From a virus (Duplodnaviria > Heunggongvirae > Uroviricota > Caudoviricetes), in the IMG/VR virus record IMGVR_UViG_2718218171_000002, positions 1 to 39,731 of that record: a DNA stretch of 39,731 bases; one strand, written 5' to 3'. Every line of letters starts with the position of its first letter. The stretch's first letter is position 1. The position numbers were made by a program, and so were the translations under genes. This document shows, piece by piece, positions 24,033-39,731 of this stretch. The notes beneath the pieces are model-generated. The model saw only the letters and a list, made by a program, of their open reading frames with translations, ran no database searches and was not told the origin of the DNA.

Positions 24033-24554
24033 TTATTTCGATATCGTGATGTTGTTTTCCTCGTCAAACTTTCTGATTACTTCTCTCGCCTCTTCGAATG
24101 AAGAACATACTTTTTGCACTCTTGCATTAAGCAGTCGCTTATGAGCGATCCATCTTTTCCGCGTGTTGCAAAAGTAAACTCCAGATATTCCGCTGGAGTT
24201 ATTTTTAGATAGTTTGATTCTATTCCTTTGGTTTGCTGATTTTTTCACAAGACGAAGATTTTCAATTCTGTTGTCGTGGCGAATCCCATTTATATGGTCA
24301 ATTTCCATGCCTTCTGGAATATCTCCGTTAAACATCACCCATACGATGCGGTGTGCTAGCCACTTAATGCCGTTAATTCTTATGCGGATATATCCATTGC
24401 TTTCTAAAAGACCAGCAACTTTCCCAGCGTGTTTTGCATTCCAAACGTTGTGATAGTTGCGATTCTTTTTGTTGTTGAAAAATTCAGAGCTTCTGGCTTT
24501 CCAAACCAAAGAGCCATCGCGGTATTCGAAGTATTCATTCAGTTCCATGCTCAT
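24033..24554 (-). CDS. HNH homing endonuclease (HNH_3 plus AP2-like DNA-binding domain)
   Basis: 173 aa; motif EIDHINGIRHDNRIENLRLV and C-terminal GISGVYF..RKRW; AT-rich; antisense to the late operon. Confidence 0.75.
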   Translation of the reverse strand: MSMELNEYFEYRDGSLVWKARSSEFFNNKKNRNYHNVWNAKHAGKVAGLLESNGYIRIRINGIKWLAHRIVWVMFNGDIPEGMEIDHINGIRHDNRIENLRLVKKSANQRNRIKLSKNNSSGISGVYFCNTRKRWIAHKRLLNARVQKVCSSFEEAREVIRKFDEENNITISK

Positions 24555-25960: not shown

Positions 25961-26560
25961 ATGAGCGTAATGATTTTTCAGGCTGGCGGAGATACCAAAA
26001 TCTGGGGGCGCAAGCTGAAAACGAAAACCGTTGATCCTGATGATGTAGCTGTGCACTTAGCAAATGGCTGGTATAAGCACCCTGACGATGTTCCTGATGA
26101 TCCTCTTGTTGGTGATCAAATTGGGAATGTTGGCGGAGGTGAAACTTCCCCAGTTGATATGGGCGAAGTGTCCGACGGTTATCACACTTTTAACGAGCTT
26201 TACGCTCACCGAGTGCGACTCTTCTCATCGCTGATGCATGCTTACGCTGAGTTTTCGTGGTGGTCTCGCAAACACAGTGACGGTGAAGAGTGGGATGGCT
26301 GGATCATTGCTGGTATCACCACTCCAGAAGGCGAAATCACTTATCACCTACCTGTTGAAGAAATCGAGTTCCTTCCTGAAGGTACTGAGCTTGAGTTCGG
26401 GAAAGAGTGGGATGGTCATGAAGCAAATGATGTTCTTGGACGACTCCTGAGTTTGCGTCCGGCTATTGCAGAGCCAGAGCCAGAGCCAGAAGAAAAACAG
26501 CGTAAAAAGCCTGGTCGAAAACCTAAGGCGGCAGCAGATGAACCTGACAACGAAGGGTGA
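25961..26560 (+). CDS. hypothetical protein (199 aa) between coat and gene 4
   Basis: ATG preceded by GGAG RBS just after the coat terminator; C-terminal EPEPEPEE plus Lys-rich tail; overlaps gene 4 start. Confidence 0.5.
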
Positions 26561-27038: not shown

Positions 27039-28457
27039 ATGCCGATTCAGCAACTTCCGCTTATGAAAGGTGTCGGCAAAGACTTCCGAAACGCCGACTA
27101 TATCGACTATCTGCCAGTGAATATGCTGGCTACTCCCAAAGAAATACTCAACAGCAGCGGATATCTTCGCTCATTCCCGGGCATTGCCAAACGTTCTGAT
27201 GTGAACGGTGTATCGCGCGGAGTCGAGTACAACATGGCGCAGAATGCTGTTTATCGCGTTTGCGGTGGCAAGTTGTATAAGGGTGAAAGCGAAGTCGGTG
27301 ACGTCGCCGGAAGTGGTCGCGTATCAATGGCGCATGGTCGAACATCTCAGGCGGTAGGCGTTAATGGTCAACTGATCGAGTATCGCTATGATGGTACGGT
27401 TAAAACCGTCTCAAACTGGCCTACAGACAGTGGATTCACTCAGTATGAGTTAGGTTCAGTTCGCGACATTACGCGCTTACGTGGGCGTTATGCGTGGTCA
27501 AAAGACGGAACTGATTCATGGTTTATCACTGATCCTGAAGACGAATCGCATCCTGACCGTTACAGCGCACAATATCGTGCCGAGTCTCAGCCGGACGGCA
27601 TCATCGGTATCGGGACATGGCGAGACTTCATCGTCTGCTTTGGTTCATCGACTATTGAATATTTCTCCCTTACTGGCGCAACCACCGTTGGTGCTGCTTT
27701 GTATGTCGCACAGCCATCACTGATGGTGCAAAAAGGCATCGCCGGGACTTACTGCAAAACGCCGTTTGCTGATTCGTATGCGTTCATCAGCAATCCGGCA
27801 ACGGGTGCGCCGTCTGTGTATATCATCGGCTCCGGTCAGGTGTCACCAATTGCCAGCGCGAGCATTGAGAAAATCCTCCGCTCCTACACTGCTGATGAAC
27901 TGGCTGATGGTGTGATGGAATCGCTGCGGTTTGATGCTCATGAGTTGCTGATTATCCACCTTCCTCGCCATGTTCTCGTGTACGACGCATCTTCAAGCGC
28001 CAATGGTCCGCAATGGTGTGTACTGAAAACAGGCTTGTATGACGATGTGTACCGCGCTATCGACTTCATTTACGAAGGAAATCAGATAACGTGCGGCGAT
28101 AAGCTGGAATCGGTGAACGGGAAATTGCAGTTCGATATCAGCAGTCAGTATGGGCTTCAACAGGAACACCTGCTGTTTACTCCACTGTTCAAAGCGGATA
28201 ACGCCAGATGCTTCGATCTGGAGGTGGAATCATCCACTGGCGTAGCTCAGTACGCCGACCGCCTGTTCCTCTCTGCAACCACTGACGGCATCAATTACGG
28301 GCGTGAGCAGATGATTGAGCAGAATGAACCGTTCGTTTACGACAAACGAGTTTTGTGGAAGAAAGTAGGGCGCATCAGGAAAAACATTGGTTTCAAATTG
28401 CGCGTTATCACGAAGTCACCTGTCACTCTGTCTGGCGCTCAGATAAGGATTGAGTAA
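27039..28457 (+). CDS. 10: tail accessory protein (P22 gp10)
   Basis: 472 aa, P22 gp10 size and position. Confidence 0.8.
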
Positions 28458-29410
28458 TGGCGGATTCGAATCTCAATGTGCCGGTAACCATTCAGGCCAC
28501 ACGGCTCGATACATCAGTTCTTCCACGCAATATCTTCTCGCAGTCGTATCTGCTTTACGTTATCGCACAGGGCACTGATGTTGGTAACGTGGCTAACAAG
28601 GCTAACGAAGCAGGGAAGGGTGCTTATGATGCACAGGTGAAGAATGATGAGCAGGATGTCACCCTTGCAGACCATGAATCCAGAATTGAAGCTGCTGAAG
28701 CAACTCTCATCAATCATGAAAATAGAATTGCAGCAGCGGAAAGCACTCTTGCAGATCATGAAACAAGGATTACGGCTGCTGAAACAGAGCTGGCTGATCA
28801 CGAGACGCGAATTGCTGCCAATGAATCTGAGTTAGCAAACCATGATGCGCGCATAACTCAGAATACAACCGATATCGACGCACTTGATACCAGGCTCACA
28901 GCGGCAGAGGGAAGTATTTCGACGCTACAAAGCACAGTTGGTGATCACTCAACAAGAATATCTGCGCTTGAGTATGCCACCACGCGCAAGAAATCAGAGG
29001 TTGTTTACTCAGGAGTATCTGTAACCATCCCGACAGCGCCGACCAACCTTGTTAGCCTGCTGAAAACGCTCACGCCGTCATCCGGCACGTTGGCACCATT
29101 CTTCGACACCGTTAACGACAAGATGGTTGTGTTCAACGAGAACAAAACCTTGTTCTTCAAGCTGTCGATCGTCGGGACGTGGCCCAGCGGAACCGCCAAC
29201 AGGTCAATGCAGCTAACCTTTTCAGGCTCTGTTCCTGACACACTGGTAAGCAGCCGCAACTCGGCGACAACGACAGATAACATCCTGTTAGCTACGTTCT
29301 TCAGCGTGGATAAAGACGGCTTTCTTGCCACAAATGGCAGCACGTTAACCATTCAGTCTAATGGTGCGGCGTTTACTGCCACAACCATCAAGATAATCGC
29401 GGAGCAGTAA
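28457..29410 (+). CDS. 26: tail needle protein (P22 gp26-like) with extended C-terminal domain
   Basis: Conserved gp26 N-terminus ([35 protein letters not shown]), heptad coiled-coil repeats, 317 aa vs 233 aa in P22. Confidence 0.75.
28664..28873 (+). repeat. five tandem 42-bp repeats encoding LADHE(S/T)RIxAAExx units
   Basis: Read directly from nucleotide and protein sequence within the needle gene. Confidence 0.7.
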
Positions 29411-29865
29411 TGATTCAGTTCAAACCAACGCGAAACATCGACCTGATCGAAGCAGTCGGAAATCACCCTGACATTATTGCCGGAAGCAACAACGGTGATG
29501 GATACGACTACAAGCCTGAATGCCGTTACTTTGAGGTGAACGTGCACGGTCAGTTTGGCGGCATTGTTTACTATCAGGAGATTCAGCCGCTGACATTCGA
29601 TTGCCACGCCATGTACCTGCCAGAGGTTCGCGGATTCAGCAAGGAAATCGGTCTGGCGTTCTGGCGATACATTCTGATTAACACCACCGTTCAGTGCGTC
29701 ACATCGTTCGCTGCACGCAAATTCCGCCACGGGCAGATGTACTGCGCAATGATTGGCCTTAAGCGTGTAGGAACTATCAAGAAATACTTCAAAGGCGTGG
29801 ATGACGTGACGTTTTACAGCGCCACACGCGAAGAACTAATCGACTTCCTGAATCACGGGAGATAG
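29410..29865 (+). CDS. 14: tail accessory protein (P22 gp14-like)
   Basis: 151 aa; gene order and TAATG coupling. Confidence 0.7.
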   Translation: MIQFKPTRNIDLIEAVGNHPDIIAGSNNGDGYDYKPECRYFEVNVHGQFGGIVYYQEIQPLTFDCHAMYLPEVRGFSKEIGLAFWRYILINTTVQCVTSFAARKFRHGQMYCAMIGLKRVGTIKKYFKGVDDVTFYSATREELIDFLNHGR

Positions 29866-30570: not shown

Positions 30571-32046
30571 ATGGCTACGTGGCAACAGGGTATTAATTCT
30601 GGTGGGTTTCTTGCTGGCATCGGTGCGCAAAATGAGAATGCGCCAAAGGCAAGCGACATTAACGCAACGCTTGGTCTGATCCGCGAAAACAATGAACTGG
30701 CTCGCTCAGGTGCAAATAACGTTGGTCTGACCGCGTTACGTGGTCTGGCTGGAGTTGCTGATATTTATAAGCAGGAACAGCAACAGAAAGCGATTAATGC
30801 GTTCAATAAGGTTCATGCTGATGCATGGGCTTCTGGTGATCCATCGGGACTATTTAAGTTTGCCCAGGAAAATCCAGCGTTTGTTGCACAGGCACAACAG
30901 GCATTTTCCGGTCTTAATGAGCAGCAACGCAACGATATGGGCGATTTAGCCATGAGGGCTAACGTCGCTCTTTCTCAGGGACCGGAAGCCTACAGTAAAT
31001 TCATTACTGATAACAAGGACAGGTTAAATCGCGTGGGGGCGAATGCTGACTGGATGATTCAGACAGGTATTCAGAATCCAGAGCAGCTATCACACATGCT
31101 GACTACTATGTCTCTCGGTGCACTTGGGCCAGAAAAGGCGTTTGCTGTTCAGGACAAGATAGCTGGTCGTGAGATTGACCGAGGCAGACTGGCAGAGACA
31201 ATCCGCAGCAATCAGGCCAGCGAAGCACTTCAGGCGAGAGGGCAGGATATTAGCCGAGCAAATGCGTTAACGTCAGCATATGCACCAACAGCCGCAATGC
31301 AGAATTACAATCAGTACGCGCAAATGTTAAAGGCGGATCCAGATGGTGCAGCGGCATTTGCGGCAGCGGCGGGAATTAATCCCAATGCTAAGAAATTACT
31401 TAAGGTTGAAACCAATCCTGATGGATCGGTAACTAAGTATTACACCGATGGCAGCGAGGAAGCAGGAAAACTAAACCAACCTATATCTGGTGATGGCATT
31501 AAACCAATTAGTTTGCCACAAGCGCAAAGCATCATAGATAAGGCTAATGAGGGTTCCAAGAAGGCGGCAGGATTTGCTTTGCGATTAAAAGATTCAATGG
31601 ACTCAATGAATCAGCTTAGTAAAAGCATTGACCCTAAGCGAGTTGCATTAATAAATCGCTCTCTTGGTGATGGGACTATTGCAAATTTAAGCCTATCACC
31701 AGCGGAGCAGCAATATATGGTAAATGCGAGAGACGCCTTGTATGCAATTTTGCGCCCAGAAACAGGTGCAGCAATTACTCTGCCAGAGATGCAGGAGTAT
31801 TCCAAAATGTACCTGCCTCAGCCCGGTGATTCCAAGGCTGCTACTGAAACAAAAATGCGAAAAATGCAGGGCCAATATAACTCATTACGTGGTCAGTCTG
31901 GTCGCGTTTATGATGCTTTGGTGGTTTCAAGTGCTGCAAATAGTCAACAACAGAGCAATAGCCAACAACCGACAAATACCCAACAGCAGCAGAGTCAATC
32001 CGGATCATATACCTCAAAATCAGGCATTCAATTTACGGTGGAATGA
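30571..32046 (+). CDS. 20: ejection protein (P22 gp20-like)
   Basis: 491 aa; gene order. Confidence 0.7.
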
Positions 32047-35436: not shown

Positions 35437-37854
35437 ATGACAGACATTACAGCCAATGTTGTAGTGAGCATGCCTTCGCAACTCTTTACTATGGCCCGCT
35501 CTTTTAAAGCCGTAGCTAATGGCAAAATTTATATCGGTAAAATTGACACTGACCCAGTAAATCCAGAAAACCAGATTCAGGTTTATGTGGAGAACGAAGA
35601 CGGCTCTCACGTTCCTGTTTCTCAACCAATCATCATTAACGCTGCTGGTTATCCGGTATATAACGGACAGATTGCCAAGTTTGTAACTGTGCAAGGCCAT
35701 TCTATGGCTGTTTATGATGCGTATGGTGCGCAGCAGTTCTATTTTCCTAATGTGCTGAAGTATGACCCTGATCAGTTACGTCAGCAATTAGAAGACCCAT
35801 ATGGTGCGGAAAAATACCCTGAATTACAAATAGCCAGATGGATAGATGATGGAGATGTAAGGGGGTGGGGGTTAAAACCAGGCTATTATTTTGATAATAG
35901 TTCTGTATGGGAAAATCTGTTAAATTCTGGACGCAAAGATTTTGTTGTGCCTTCTGGTGTTTTCAGATTTTCTAACGGAATTGATATACCAGGAGACTTT
36001 AGATTTATAGGGCAGGGCTCTCCTATTCTTGGTTTTGGCACAGATGATGATAAGCATTTTTTGTCTGAAGGAATTAAGCAAAACATGCCGGGTTCATCAT
36101 TTATATTTTCTGGAAAAGGGACAAGAGAAGCCACGGCGTACAATCGCAATGACCAATTTTCAAGCGTAAGGTATTGTGTGCGAGTTATGTCACCAGAGTA
36201 TGGTTCTAGTGGAGCCGTATTACGTGGTATTGCAATAATTCAGGACATGGTCTGCTTTGATGGTGATGGTATTCCAACAACCCCTAATAATGATATGCGT
36301 TCAGATTATGAGTGTGGTGTTTATTACGACGACTCTGCAAGAAATCTTCAGGAGGATGTTTGTGTATTCGGATACTTTTCAAAAGCAGGTACAATAATTC
36401 AGTCAAAGCAAGGAAACGATGACCCTGATTACAATACCATTACTGGTGGGTCAACTATGGGGAGAGTCGGTTTAGCAATTCTTGGTTCAAACACTGGGCC
36501 TGCAAGTTATGGTCTCAGCGGAACTAGAGTAGATAAATGTGGTATTTATACCCTTGATCACCACAGTCGTGCATCAATGTCTCATGAAGAGCTTGTTTCT
36601 TATTACTCTAGCGCAAACACATGGCGATGCCTTTATATAGATGGTGATGTTAATGCGACATCCGCTGAAATAAATGGGCATTACTTTTATGGCTGTGAGT
36701 TTAGAACCAGAGCTAATCATGCATTAGAATTTGATCACGCATCCAACATCCAGTTTTATGGTGGCGTGGTAGAGCAATCCCCTTATGGTATTACAAATTC
36801 AGATATTCCGACTTTTATTGGTTCTGAGAATGTAAAGAGAGGCGTTGGTTTTTATGGCGTGCGCATGAATTATATTTCTCAGATATTTAATGACAATTTT
36901 GCTGGAGTGATTCCTGTAAAAATAATAGTTTCAGGCGATCCGCTAAACGGTAGATTTGGAGTTGTAGGTAAAGACCCAGCAGGCGGTTATACCGTTGCAA
37001 TTCTTGGCTCTGATGGGAATATTGGTGACGCATCAATTCAGTTTACGAAGAATGCTGCTGATGGGTCTACAGGATGGAAAGTGATGATGGATGCAAGCTC
37101 CGACAGACTATTGGTCAGCAAGGATGGAGAAACCATGACGTCACTCACTGAGACAGGAATGTACACTGTATCGGCTCCATCTGGTTCTGATGCTATTCTT
37201 GGCCTGCTCAGTAATGGCAACGCTACATCTTGGTTCATGAGAACACAATACAACAGTGTAGGTCAATTACAGTTCAGACATGGTGGGTCTGGAGCTACTC
37301 CAGCAATGCAAATAGCAACGTCAGGAGGAATAACTCCTGGAACTGATGCCACTTCAAATATAGGTAGCGCATCACTACGATATAACATTGGTTATTTTGC
37401 CGGAGGAACCCAGTCAAGCTCTGATGCAAGACTGAAGGATCCGATAAGAGAAATGACAGATTCTGAAAAGTCAGCAGCTAAAGAAATAGGAGAAATGATT
37501 GGGTTTTGGACATGGATTGATGATGACTCAAAGCGTTTGCATGCAGGAATAACAGTTCAATCAGTTATATCTGTATTAGAAAAACATGGATTAAATTGGA
37601 GGAATTATTCATTTATAGGTTTTGATGAATGGGATGACATATATGATGATGTAGTTAAAGACATCGAAGTTGAAGATGCGAATGGTAATAAAAAAATAAT
37701 ATCGGTTAATTCTGGAGAGAAAAAGCTTGTAAAAAAAGCAGGGAATCTTTTTCAATTTAGAGACCAAGAATTAGACAGATTTATAATGAGAGGGTTATCA
37801 GAAAGGATATCTGATATTGAAGATTTATTGATTAAAAAAGTTATTAAACAATAA
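35437..37854 (+). CDS. 9: tailspike protein: P22 gp9-type head-binding domain, beta-helix-type receptor-binding region, C-terminal intramolecular chaperone (S74-like) domain
   Basis: N-terminal ~115 aa matches P22 gp9; SDARLK self-cleavage-type motif about 144 aa from the C-terminus; 3' ~440 bp strongly AT-rich. Confidence 0.85.
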
Positions 37855-38558: not shown

Positions 38559-39731
38559 TTGCTGTTGAAACGCCGTCTTATTATTGCTGCTTCTTTGTTC
38601 GTTTTTAACTTATCGTCTGGTTTTGCGGCGGAAAACATTCCTTTTTCACCTCAGCCTCCAGAGATTCATGCCGGCTCCTGGGTATTGATGGATTACACCA
38701 CCGGTCAGATCCTCACCGCGGGTAATGAGCATCAACAGCGCAATCCCGCCAGCCTGACAAAGCTGATGACGGGCTATGTCGTGGATCGCGCTATCGATAG
38801 TCATCGCATTACGCCAGACGATATTGTCACCGTGGGGCGCGATGCGTGGGCGAAAGATAATCCAGTGTTTGTCGGTTCTTCACTGATGTTTTTGAAAGAG
38901 GGCGATCGCGTATCGGTACGTGATTTAAGCCGTGGTTTAATTGTGGATTCCGGAAATGATGCTTGTGTTGCTCTGGCTGACTATATTGCCGGTGGGCAAC
39001 GGCAGTTTGTTGAAATGATGAACAACTATGCCGAGAAGCTGCATCTCAAGGATACGCATTTTGAAACAGTGCATGGTCTGGATGCACCAGGCCAGCATAG
39101 CTCGGCTTATGATTTAGCTGTGCTTTCTCGCGCTATCATCCACGGCGAGCCCGAGTTTTATCATATGTACAGTGAGAAAAGTCTCACCTGGAACGGTATC
39201 ACCCAGCAAAACCGTAACGGGTTATTGTGGGATAAAACCATGAATGTTGACGGCCTGAAAACGGGTCATACTTCTGGTGCCGGGTTTAATCTCATTGCTT
39301 CGGCTGTAGATGGGCAGCGTCGTCTCATTGCAGTGGTAATGGGGGCTGACAGTGCAAAAGGTCGTGAGGAAGAGGCAAGAAAATTACTGCGTTGGGGGCA
39401 ACAAAACTTTACTACGGTGCAAATTTTGCATCGTGGGAAAAAGGTCGGTACGGAACGCATCTGGTATGGCGATAAAGAAAATATCGCCCTGGGAACGGAA
39501 CAAGAGTTCTGGATGGTGCTACCGAAAGCCGAAATTCCACATATCAAAGCCAAATATACCCTTGATGGTAAAGAGCTCACTGCGCCAATTAGCGCCCATC
39601 AGCGGGTAGGGGAAATTGAACTTTACGACCGTGATAAACAGGTGGCGCACTGGCCGCTGGTTACCCTGGAATCTGTCGGGGAAGGCAGCATGTTTTCCCG
39701 CCTGAGTGATTATTTCCACCATAAGGCTTGA
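38559..39731 (+). CDS. dacD: D-alanyl-D-alanine carboxypeptidase, DacD-like (host gene)
   Basis: 390 aa; penicillin-binding motifs SLTK, SGN, KTG; TTG start; stop codon is the last three bases of the window. Confidence 0.85.
   Translation: MLLKRRLIIAASLFVFNLSSGFAAENIPFSPQPPEIHAGSWVLMDYTTGQILTAGNEHQQRNPASLTKLMTGYVVDRAIDSHRITPDDIVTVGRDAWAKDNPVFVGSSLMFLKEGDRVSVRDLSRGLIVDSGNDACVALADYIAGGQRQFVEMMNNYAEKLHLKDTHFETVHGLDAPGQHSSAYDLAVLSRAIIHGEPEFYHMYSEKSLTWNGITQQNRNGLLWDKTMNVDGLKTGHTSGAGFNLIASAVDGQRRLIAVVMGADSAKGREEEARKLLRWGQQNFTTVQILHRGKKVGTERIWYGDKENIALGTEQEFWMVLPKAEIPHIKAKYTLDGKELTAPISAHQRVGEIELYDRDKQVAHWPLVTLESVGEGSMFSRLSDYFHHKA

Follow-up and report, generated by a model that had tools for sequence, protein, structure and literature searches.

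A 42-bp repeat in the tail needle gene of a P22-like Escherichia coli prophage and its in-frame length alleles

The repeat-bearing gene described here, part of a 39,731-nucleotide stretch of DNA that was analysed in full (referred to as the window), is the tail needle gene of a P22-like Escherichia coli prophage, and the protein that it encodes is of the already characterised HS1 type. We consider it highly probable that the 42-bp period in this gene is the two-heptad unit of the needle shaft and that occasional recombination yields rare, in-frame length alleles. In the scheme that we propose, the needle would seal the tail hub with its N-terminal plug, continue as a long coiled-coil trimer that forms the shaft, and end in a distal knob; the 14-residue unit of the shaft would have been multiplied by ancient tandem duplication, and its copies may now be held alike mainly through selection on the protein. 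In-phase identities of 7 to 9 bp remain between the diverged units, and whole units could occasionally be gained or lost by slippage during replication or by recombination, unequal or mediated by microhomology. The outcome would be a set of rare in-frame alleles with 7 to 20 heptads, each 14-aa unit accounting for some 2 nm of length.

An HS1-type tail needle and its repetitive shaft

When the translated gene was searched against the PDB with phmmer, the plug matched 8eap_B over residues 3 to 64 (E = 1e-26), with residues 1 to 62 of P22 gp26 aligned, and the match to the P22 gp26 structures 2POH and 3C9I covered residues 1 to 139 only (E of about 1e-41). Toward the C-terminus, PF16532 was found over aa 136 to 317 (E = 7e-108), and the knob (aa 165 to 317) proved to be nearly identical (99%) to those of HS1 (4K6B; E = 5e-90) and Sf6 (3RWN; E = 4e-89). 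Over its full length, the protein aligns without gaps to the needle of prophage HS1 of E. coli HS (ABV04705.1), with 309 of 317 residues (97%) identical, and a 4.99-Mb E. coli contig encodes the exact protein (APJ72089.1/WP_073461873.1). The genes around it follow the order gp4-like (PF11650), gp10 (PF11134), needle, gp14/DUF2824 (PF11039), and the gp7, gp20 and gp16 ejection genes, with PF25688 and PF16928 also in order. This P22 order of tail and ejection genes, together with the domain matches, identifies the product as a P22-like tail needle of the gp26 family: it has an N-terminal plug homologous to that of gp26, a domain common to all P22-like needles (PMC9728967), and its gene is located between gp10 and the ejection genes. 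The TNF-like PF16532 knob at the C-terminus assigns it to the knob-bearing Sf6/HS1 subtype, and its shaft, which is collinear with EcHS_A0316 and comprises eight 14-aa units (112 aa), assigns it to the HS1 type. Coordinates are listed in Table 1.

An earlier note, made from the sequence alone, had called the gene a tail needle gene, and here Pfam, the PDB, the 97% identity to HS1 and the gene order all agree with it. The same note had described a long C-terminal extension relative to P22 gp26, a description that we have to replace: residues 165 to 317, approximately, are the Sf6/HS1 knob, which takes the place of an unrelated P22 tip, and the excess in size over P22 gp26 stems from this exchange plus a shaft that is longer by five heptads.

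Table 1. Features of the needle gene and its surroundings, and junctions of natural length alleles (positions are those of the window)
Feature	Position	Strand	Evidence or remark
gp10-like tail hub gene, upstream neighbour	27039..28457	+	PF11134, E = 7e-297
Tail needle gene, HS1 type (P22 gene 26/Sf6 gene 9 orthologue), 317 aa	28457..29410	+	ORF, Pfam and PDB matches
N-terminal plug/tail-hub-binding domain, aa 1-60	28457..28636	+	P22 gp26 alignment
Coiled-coil shaft, aa 61-172 (V61-E172), 112 aa = 16 heptads	28637..28972	+	Sequence, NxxQD register
Five 42-bp (14-aa) units, in frame with 28457..29410	28664..28873	+	Lag-42 match
Degenerate continuation of the 14-aa period, units 6-7 plus RISALE	28874..28972	+	Identity matrix
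C-terminal Sf6/HS1-type TNF-like knob domain	28973..29407	+	PF16532, 4k6b_A, 3rwn_A
DUF2824 (P22 gp14-like) gene, downstream neighbour	29410..29865	+	PF11039, PF25688
Junction of +84-bp duplication, 345 aa (L001)	28664..28671	+	CTTGCAGA, again at 28748-28755 (offset 84)
Junction of -42-bp allele, fusion 1/2, 303 aa (L004)	28682..28688	+	AGAATTG, again at 28724-28730 (offset 42)
Junction of -42-bp allele, fusion 2/3, 303 aa (L007)	28713..28721	+	ATCATGAAA, again at 28755-28763 (offset 42)
Junction of -147-bp allele, 268 aa (L006)	28795..28801	+	TGATCAC, again at 28942-28948 (offset 147)
Junction of -84-bp allele (289 aa)			CAC
Junction of -42-bp allele, fusion 4/5			AT, compared with the window allele
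Junction of Sf6-type 254-aa allele			CATGAAACGCGAAT
Junction of Sf6-type 296-aa allele			CATGAG

Three known needles provide the relevant comparisons. The HS1 needle (EcHS_A0316; knob structure 4K6B) shares with that of the window the length of 317 aa, the eight 14-aa units, the 16-heptad shaft and the knob, and differs from it by eight substitutions, four of which fall in repeat units (e.g., N89 versus H and D100 versus E). Sf6 gp9 (282 aa; knob structure 3RWN) has the same plug, a knob that is approximately 99% identical and a unit motif, L-x-D-H-E-x-R-I, in common, whereas its shaft counts 11 heptads (77 aa), to which the window's adds two 14-aa units and one heptad (35 aa). P22 gp26 (233 aa; 2POH and 3C9I) occupies the same gene position and has a homologous plug, the NxxQD layer and the first LADHExRI/DDHESRI units; unlike the window's protein, it has 11 heptads and, in residues 141 to 233, a different tip domain and no knob. 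This P22 tip reportedly consists of a triple beta-helix and an inverted coiled coil. In the literature, the HS1 needle is given 16 heptads, compared with 11 in Sf6 and P22 (Leavitt et al., 2013; PMC3741392), and from the same source come a shaft identity of approximately 67% between HS1 and Sf6, the 99% identity of their knobs and a range of 220 to 320 Å and 11 to 16 heptads for P22-like needles; it also cites a 2009 paper by Bhardwaj et al., the title of which relates needle stability to the length of the coiled coil.

The shaft opens with an NxxQD layer (N63 at position a, Q66 at position d), from which the register was taken, since in P22 gp26 the NxxQD motif forms the Ca-binding layer and places N at a and Q at d (PMC13580157). 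From there, the a/d pattern runs unbroken over 16 heptads, with L or I at a and H, A, N or L at d, in register with the P22 layer. Each 14-residue unit comprises two heptads and follows the pattern L-x-x-H-x-x-x-I-x-x-A, contributing a Leu(a)-His(d) layer and an Ile(a)-Ala(d) layer; units 4 and 5 have Asn at d. By homology to the P22 gp26 structures, the shaft is predicted to be trimeric and to keep this register, and from the usual helical rise one unit should correspond to approximately 2 nm of rod. That the repeats build the coiled-coil shaft of the needle, as had been proposed, is thus well supported, at the level of sequence, by a two-heptad motif that recurs through the whole 16-heptad region.

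At the DNA level, the array was expected to consist of five imperfect tandem 42-bp repeats, and its boundaries turned out to be exact: five times 42 nt, in frame. The lag-42 nucleotide match is 0.613, compared with 0.311 ± 0.035 in codon shuffles (none of 20,000 reached the observed value), and this signal is the highest among all 210-nt stretches of the 39.7-kb window, with further peaks at lags 84 and 126. Units 1 to 4 are pairwise 50 to 74% identical in DNA and 57 to 79% in protein, and unit 5 is 38 to 55% (DNA) and 36 to 50% (protein) identical to the others. Tandem Repeats Finder reported 2.5 copies only (28660-28763, 71% matches), and a direct-repeat search retrieved four copies at 42-nt spacing plus a fifth at 28929-28959, so that both understate the array and lag autocorrelation with codon shuffling was required. 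Beyond 28873, the 14-residue period runs on in degenerate form to 28972, with the DH-x-x-RI motif of unit 7 displaced by one heptad. Five is a fair count of the recognisable units; the whole periodic region contains eight. Where two units have the same residue, they use the same codon at 32 of 79 positions, indicating that the likeness of the units is kept mostly at the protein level and that they were duplicated long ago. Exact in-phase repeats within the array reach 9 bp at most, and the window's shaft contains three exact direct repeats of at least 8 bp, all in phase with the 42-bp period.

One further property of this region concerns its relation to other phages. At approximately 28687-28692 (needle nt 230 to 236), within unit 1, the gene abruptly loses its nucleotide homology to its counterparts in P22, HK620, Dewey and roughly 100 further phages, which marks the start of the repeat array as a mosaic recombination boundary. 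In phage Dewey, which matches the virion module most closely overall, both shaft and knob are different.

Length alleles among relatives and their junctions

For the length survey, the 120 best of 2,512 homologues were taken and their shafts were cut in the 14-aa register. Among these 120, needles of 254, 268, 282, 289, 296, 303, 310, 317, 331, 338 and 345 aa were found, with matching shafts of 49, 63, 77, 84, 91, 98, 105, 112, 126, 133 and 140 aa. All of these shaft lengths are multiples of 7, corresponding to 7, 9, 11, 12, 13, 14, 15, 16, 18, 19 and 20 heptads. Aligning the needle genes of relatives and counting their units, as the earlier note had suggested, thus reveals a repeat number that is not invariant and ranges from 7 to 20 heptads.

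At least 12 in-phase deletions or duplications of units can be distinguished among these relatives. In the HS1 type, a duplication of units 1 and 2 gives the 345-aa needle, and a like duplication combined with a fusion of units 4 and 5 gives one of 331 aa. Three distinct single-unit deletions (fusions 1/2, 2/3 and 4/5) all lead to 303 aa, two distinct two-unit deletions lead to 289 aa, and a deletion of 49 aa, by which unit 4 is joined to the shifted unit-7 motif, leads to 268 aa. In the Sf6 type, needles of 254 and 268 aa result from the loss of 28 and 14 aa, and needles of 296, 310 and 338 aa from duplications of 14, 28 and 56 aa, respectively.

Some proteins were set aside in this count. 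Shafts of 80, 93, 104 and 111 aa (P0055, P0050, P0054 and P0006) are off phase; these are one-off sequences, and we left them out of the unit events. Proteins of 324, 298, 288 and 285 aa (the last being P0083) are not shaft variants either: their shafts are standard and the difference lies elsewhere, in the 298-aa protein (P0078) in a short N-terminal duplication. One of the off-phase sequences, P0054, is a 309-aa Sf6-type needle encoded on a 5.03-Mb contig, with a 27-residue shaft duplication (6 mod 7). Insertions of 6 residues are reported in PMC4786415 to make beta-layers in trimeric coiled coils; for P0054, the alternatives are a needle that is defective and an alpha/beta coiled coil that occurs naturally.

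Breakpoints were mapped on the DNA of ten variants (Table 1). The junction microhomologies span 2 to 14 bp, and 4 of the 10 longest in-phase repeats of the window's shaft are exactly the junctions of natural alleles. That the junctions coincide with in-phase repeats is in keeping with slippage between the diverged units or with their unequal, microhomology-mediated recombination; we infer such a mechanism, for which slippage, a RecA-dependent route and a phage recombinase are all candidates. The excess of in-phase events cannot be cleanly assigned to selection, since the microhomologies on offer are themselves in phase.

Frequency, reality and spread of the length alleles

Two lengths dominate: the 16 heptads of the HS1 type, to which the window belongs, and the 11 heptads of the Sf6 type. 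Approximately 163 of 5,426 complete RefSeq E. coli genomes carry an HS1-type gene, and all those examined measure 952 to 954 bp. When six variant alleles (345, 303 D/E, 303 A/B, 289, 268 and 254 aa) were used as queries, none of them was present in these 5,426 complete E. coli genomes; the best match to each was a standard gene of 954 or 849 bp, aligned in two pieces. This absence indicates that the frequency of variants is low. Among the best 80 loci in IMG/VR, 72 encode a 317-aa needle (951 nt) and the remaining 8 belong to the 846-nt Sf6 type, with no needle length between 951 and 846 nt. In cultured phages, the needle measures 317 aa (JEP4, Gally and 720R6), 282 aa (Sf6, N7, Louie, Kapi1 and phiKp_30) or 288 aa (S9-5). 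Additionally, the 112-aa shaft is kept in relatives from Klebsiella and Serratia at 72 to 78% identity, and the sharing of the 16-heptad length across genera suggests purifying selection on length and no switching. The suggestion that the repeats are substrates for slippage or recombination and that needle length could vary accordingly therefore holds in part: length does vary among relatives, but with exact in-phase repeats of at most 9 bp the units are poor substrates for slippage, and the variants are rare.

Partial matches in E. coli O157:H7 and in two further genomes were rejected as short alleles because they are truncated pseudogenes. The O157:H7 case (strain ATCC 35150, CP038405, 1522041-1522577), which occurs in many O157:H7 genomes, is an N-terminally truncated needle-knob pseudogene followed by an intact DUF2824 gene, ejection genes and intS, and looks like the remnant of a decayed P22-like prophage.

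Two alleles are informative as to age. Compared with E. coli strain 317, whose genome is complete (CP023357), the locus encoding the 345-aa needle shows three SNPs in 5.8 kb of surrounding sequence, and in the needle gene the 84-bp duplication is the sole difference; this duplication is recent. The 303-aa allele P0022 was found on 17 contigs, the complete chromosome CP057936.1 among them (the variants P0011, P0063 and P0009 were found on 13, 7 and 5 contigs, respectively). In six P0022 loci (L098 to L103), the needle genes are 0 to 10 nt apart and lie in at least six intact mosaic prophage backgrounds that differ in terminase, portal, coat and ejection genes. Such small differences in such varied backgrounds point to a single, older deletion that was spread by recombination among mosaic prophages. 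Regardless of the length question, these six loci clearly illustrate that a single gene of the P22-like virion module can be exchanged horizontally.

With these data, two opposing accounts of the array can be weighed. If it were a contingency or hypervariable locus, the repeats would slip often and needle length would switch frequently between and within isolates. The repeats are indeed in frame, with a unit length that is a multiple of 3, and there is a ladder of length alleles, one of which is set apart from a near-identical prophage by nothing else than a duplication. However, the units are not near-perfect repeats (38 to 74% identity and no in-phase match beyond 9 bp), variation is not frequent (none in the HS1-type genes of the roughly 163 complete genomes or in the 72 IMG/VR loci), the 303-aa allele goes back to one old event that spread across prophages and gained SNPs of its own, and 16 heptads are conserved across genera. 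Taken together, we regard frequent switching as extremely improbable.

The opposite account, in which the period is a static structural requirement of the coiled coil, copy number is constant and the variants are artefacts of assembly or annotation, is hardly more credible, and we consider it very improbable. In its favour are the codons, which have diverged between units (32 of 79 shared), the absence of every tested variant from the complete-genome collection and the origin of many variants in draft or Logan assemblies. The source of most variant alleles is indeed a short-read draft assembly or a Logan assembly, and the 345- and 338-aa alleles, each known from a single contig, are the least secure. 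Against artefacts, De Bruijn assemblers are unable to cross from one unit to another when no more than 14 bp are shared, and the same variant proteins (P0022, P0011, P0063 and P0009) recur in independent samples; for the same two reasons, the limited exact identity between units and the recurrence in many samples, assembly collapse is an implausible source of the deletions. Moreover, variant alleles bear substitutions of their own and sit in intact virion modules, and cultured phages already have needles of 282, 288 and 317 aa. As far as can be judged from their genes and surroundings, the variants appear to be real and functional looking.

Finally, gain and loss of units might be adaptive, being selected for the reach of the knob past the tailspikes and tracking O-antigen or capsule depth or tailspike size. 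The needle extends beyond the tailspikes and has been proposed to be an outer-membrane sensor, and the sequence of the shaft alters ejection kinetics (PMC3741392). The existence of two discrete dominant lengths, and the persistence and spread of in-phase alleles, would also suit such tuning. The tailspikes of the P0022 loci speak against it. They are of three types, i.e., 665-aa and 805-aa proteins with Head_binding and S74 domains and a 663-aa protein of the pectate-lyase type, so that an identical 303-aa allele occurs with at least three of them and a needle length is not restricted to a single tailspike. Conversely, the tailspike of L101 is 97.8% identical to that of the window, and this tailspike type is thus combined with needles of both 317 and 303 aa; besides, variants are rare. 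Strict coadaptation of needle and tailspike is ruled out by the three tailspike types of the one 303-aa allele, and adaptive tuning in its looser form seems unlikely to us. There is likewise only a slim chance that shaft length is an evolvable, selected trait for which the units serve as a notched ruler, their in-phase microhomologies allowing recombination to change length in steps of approximately 2 nm, with alleles being exchanged among mosaic P22-like prophages and the reach of the knob being retuned to cell surfaces of different architecture.

The surrounding prophage and the place of needle length

Several other features of the window were recorded. Its last ORF (38559-39731) is a host D-Ala-D-Ala carboxypeptidase (PF00768/PF07943), the presence of which indicates an integrated P22-like prophage, not a free phage genome, and places the right end of the prophage between the tailspike gene (35437..37854) and position 38559. 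The 805-aa tailspike combines a P22 head-binding domain (PF09008) with a C-terminal Peptidase_S74 intramolecular chaperone domain, and its receptor-binding middle is without a Pfam match. The O-like replication initiator gene (PF04492; 9408..10355) contains, between 9835 and 10010, iteron-like repeats that recur every 12 bp (CCGCACATGAAG and variants) and form two clusters; two copies of TACCCCCC come next, and the prophage probably has its replication origin here. On the minus strand, at 24033-24554, a 173-aa ORF lies between the scaffold and coat genes. Its counterpart in a 98%-identical locus (L099) carries PF13392 (HNH_3), and in certain E. coli genomes the needle gene instead has an HNH or NUMOD4 gene as its neighbour; the ORF has the look of a mobile insert encoding a homing endonuclease. 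Virion genes contain short in-frame repeats in two other places: an 18-bp period at 31937-31989, which gives the gp20-like protein its Q/S/N-rich C-terminus, and (CAGAGC)x3.7 at 26469-26490, translated as QSQSQSQ close to where the gp4-like ORF begins.

Rods that owe their length to the number of tandem repeats are familiar from the pseudorepeats of the adenovirus fibre shaft and from the streptococcal M protein, where intragenic recombination gives rise to size variants. M-protein repeats are near perfect at the DNA level and vary frequently, whereas the units of the window's needle have diverged and its variants are rare. The needle itself is a known type of protein, and differences in heptad number (11 to 16) among P22-like needles have already been published. 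What is added here is a wider range of 7 to 20 heptads, microhomology junctions in the register of the unit, evidence that the variants are rare and the finding that one allele has spread over several prophage backgrounds. No current view is overturned by these findings. Since the needle plugs the tail and is expected to be the first part of the virion to arrive at the outer membrane, its length could influence the timing of DNA release, and the alleles described here form a natural length series with which the importance of needle length may be tested.
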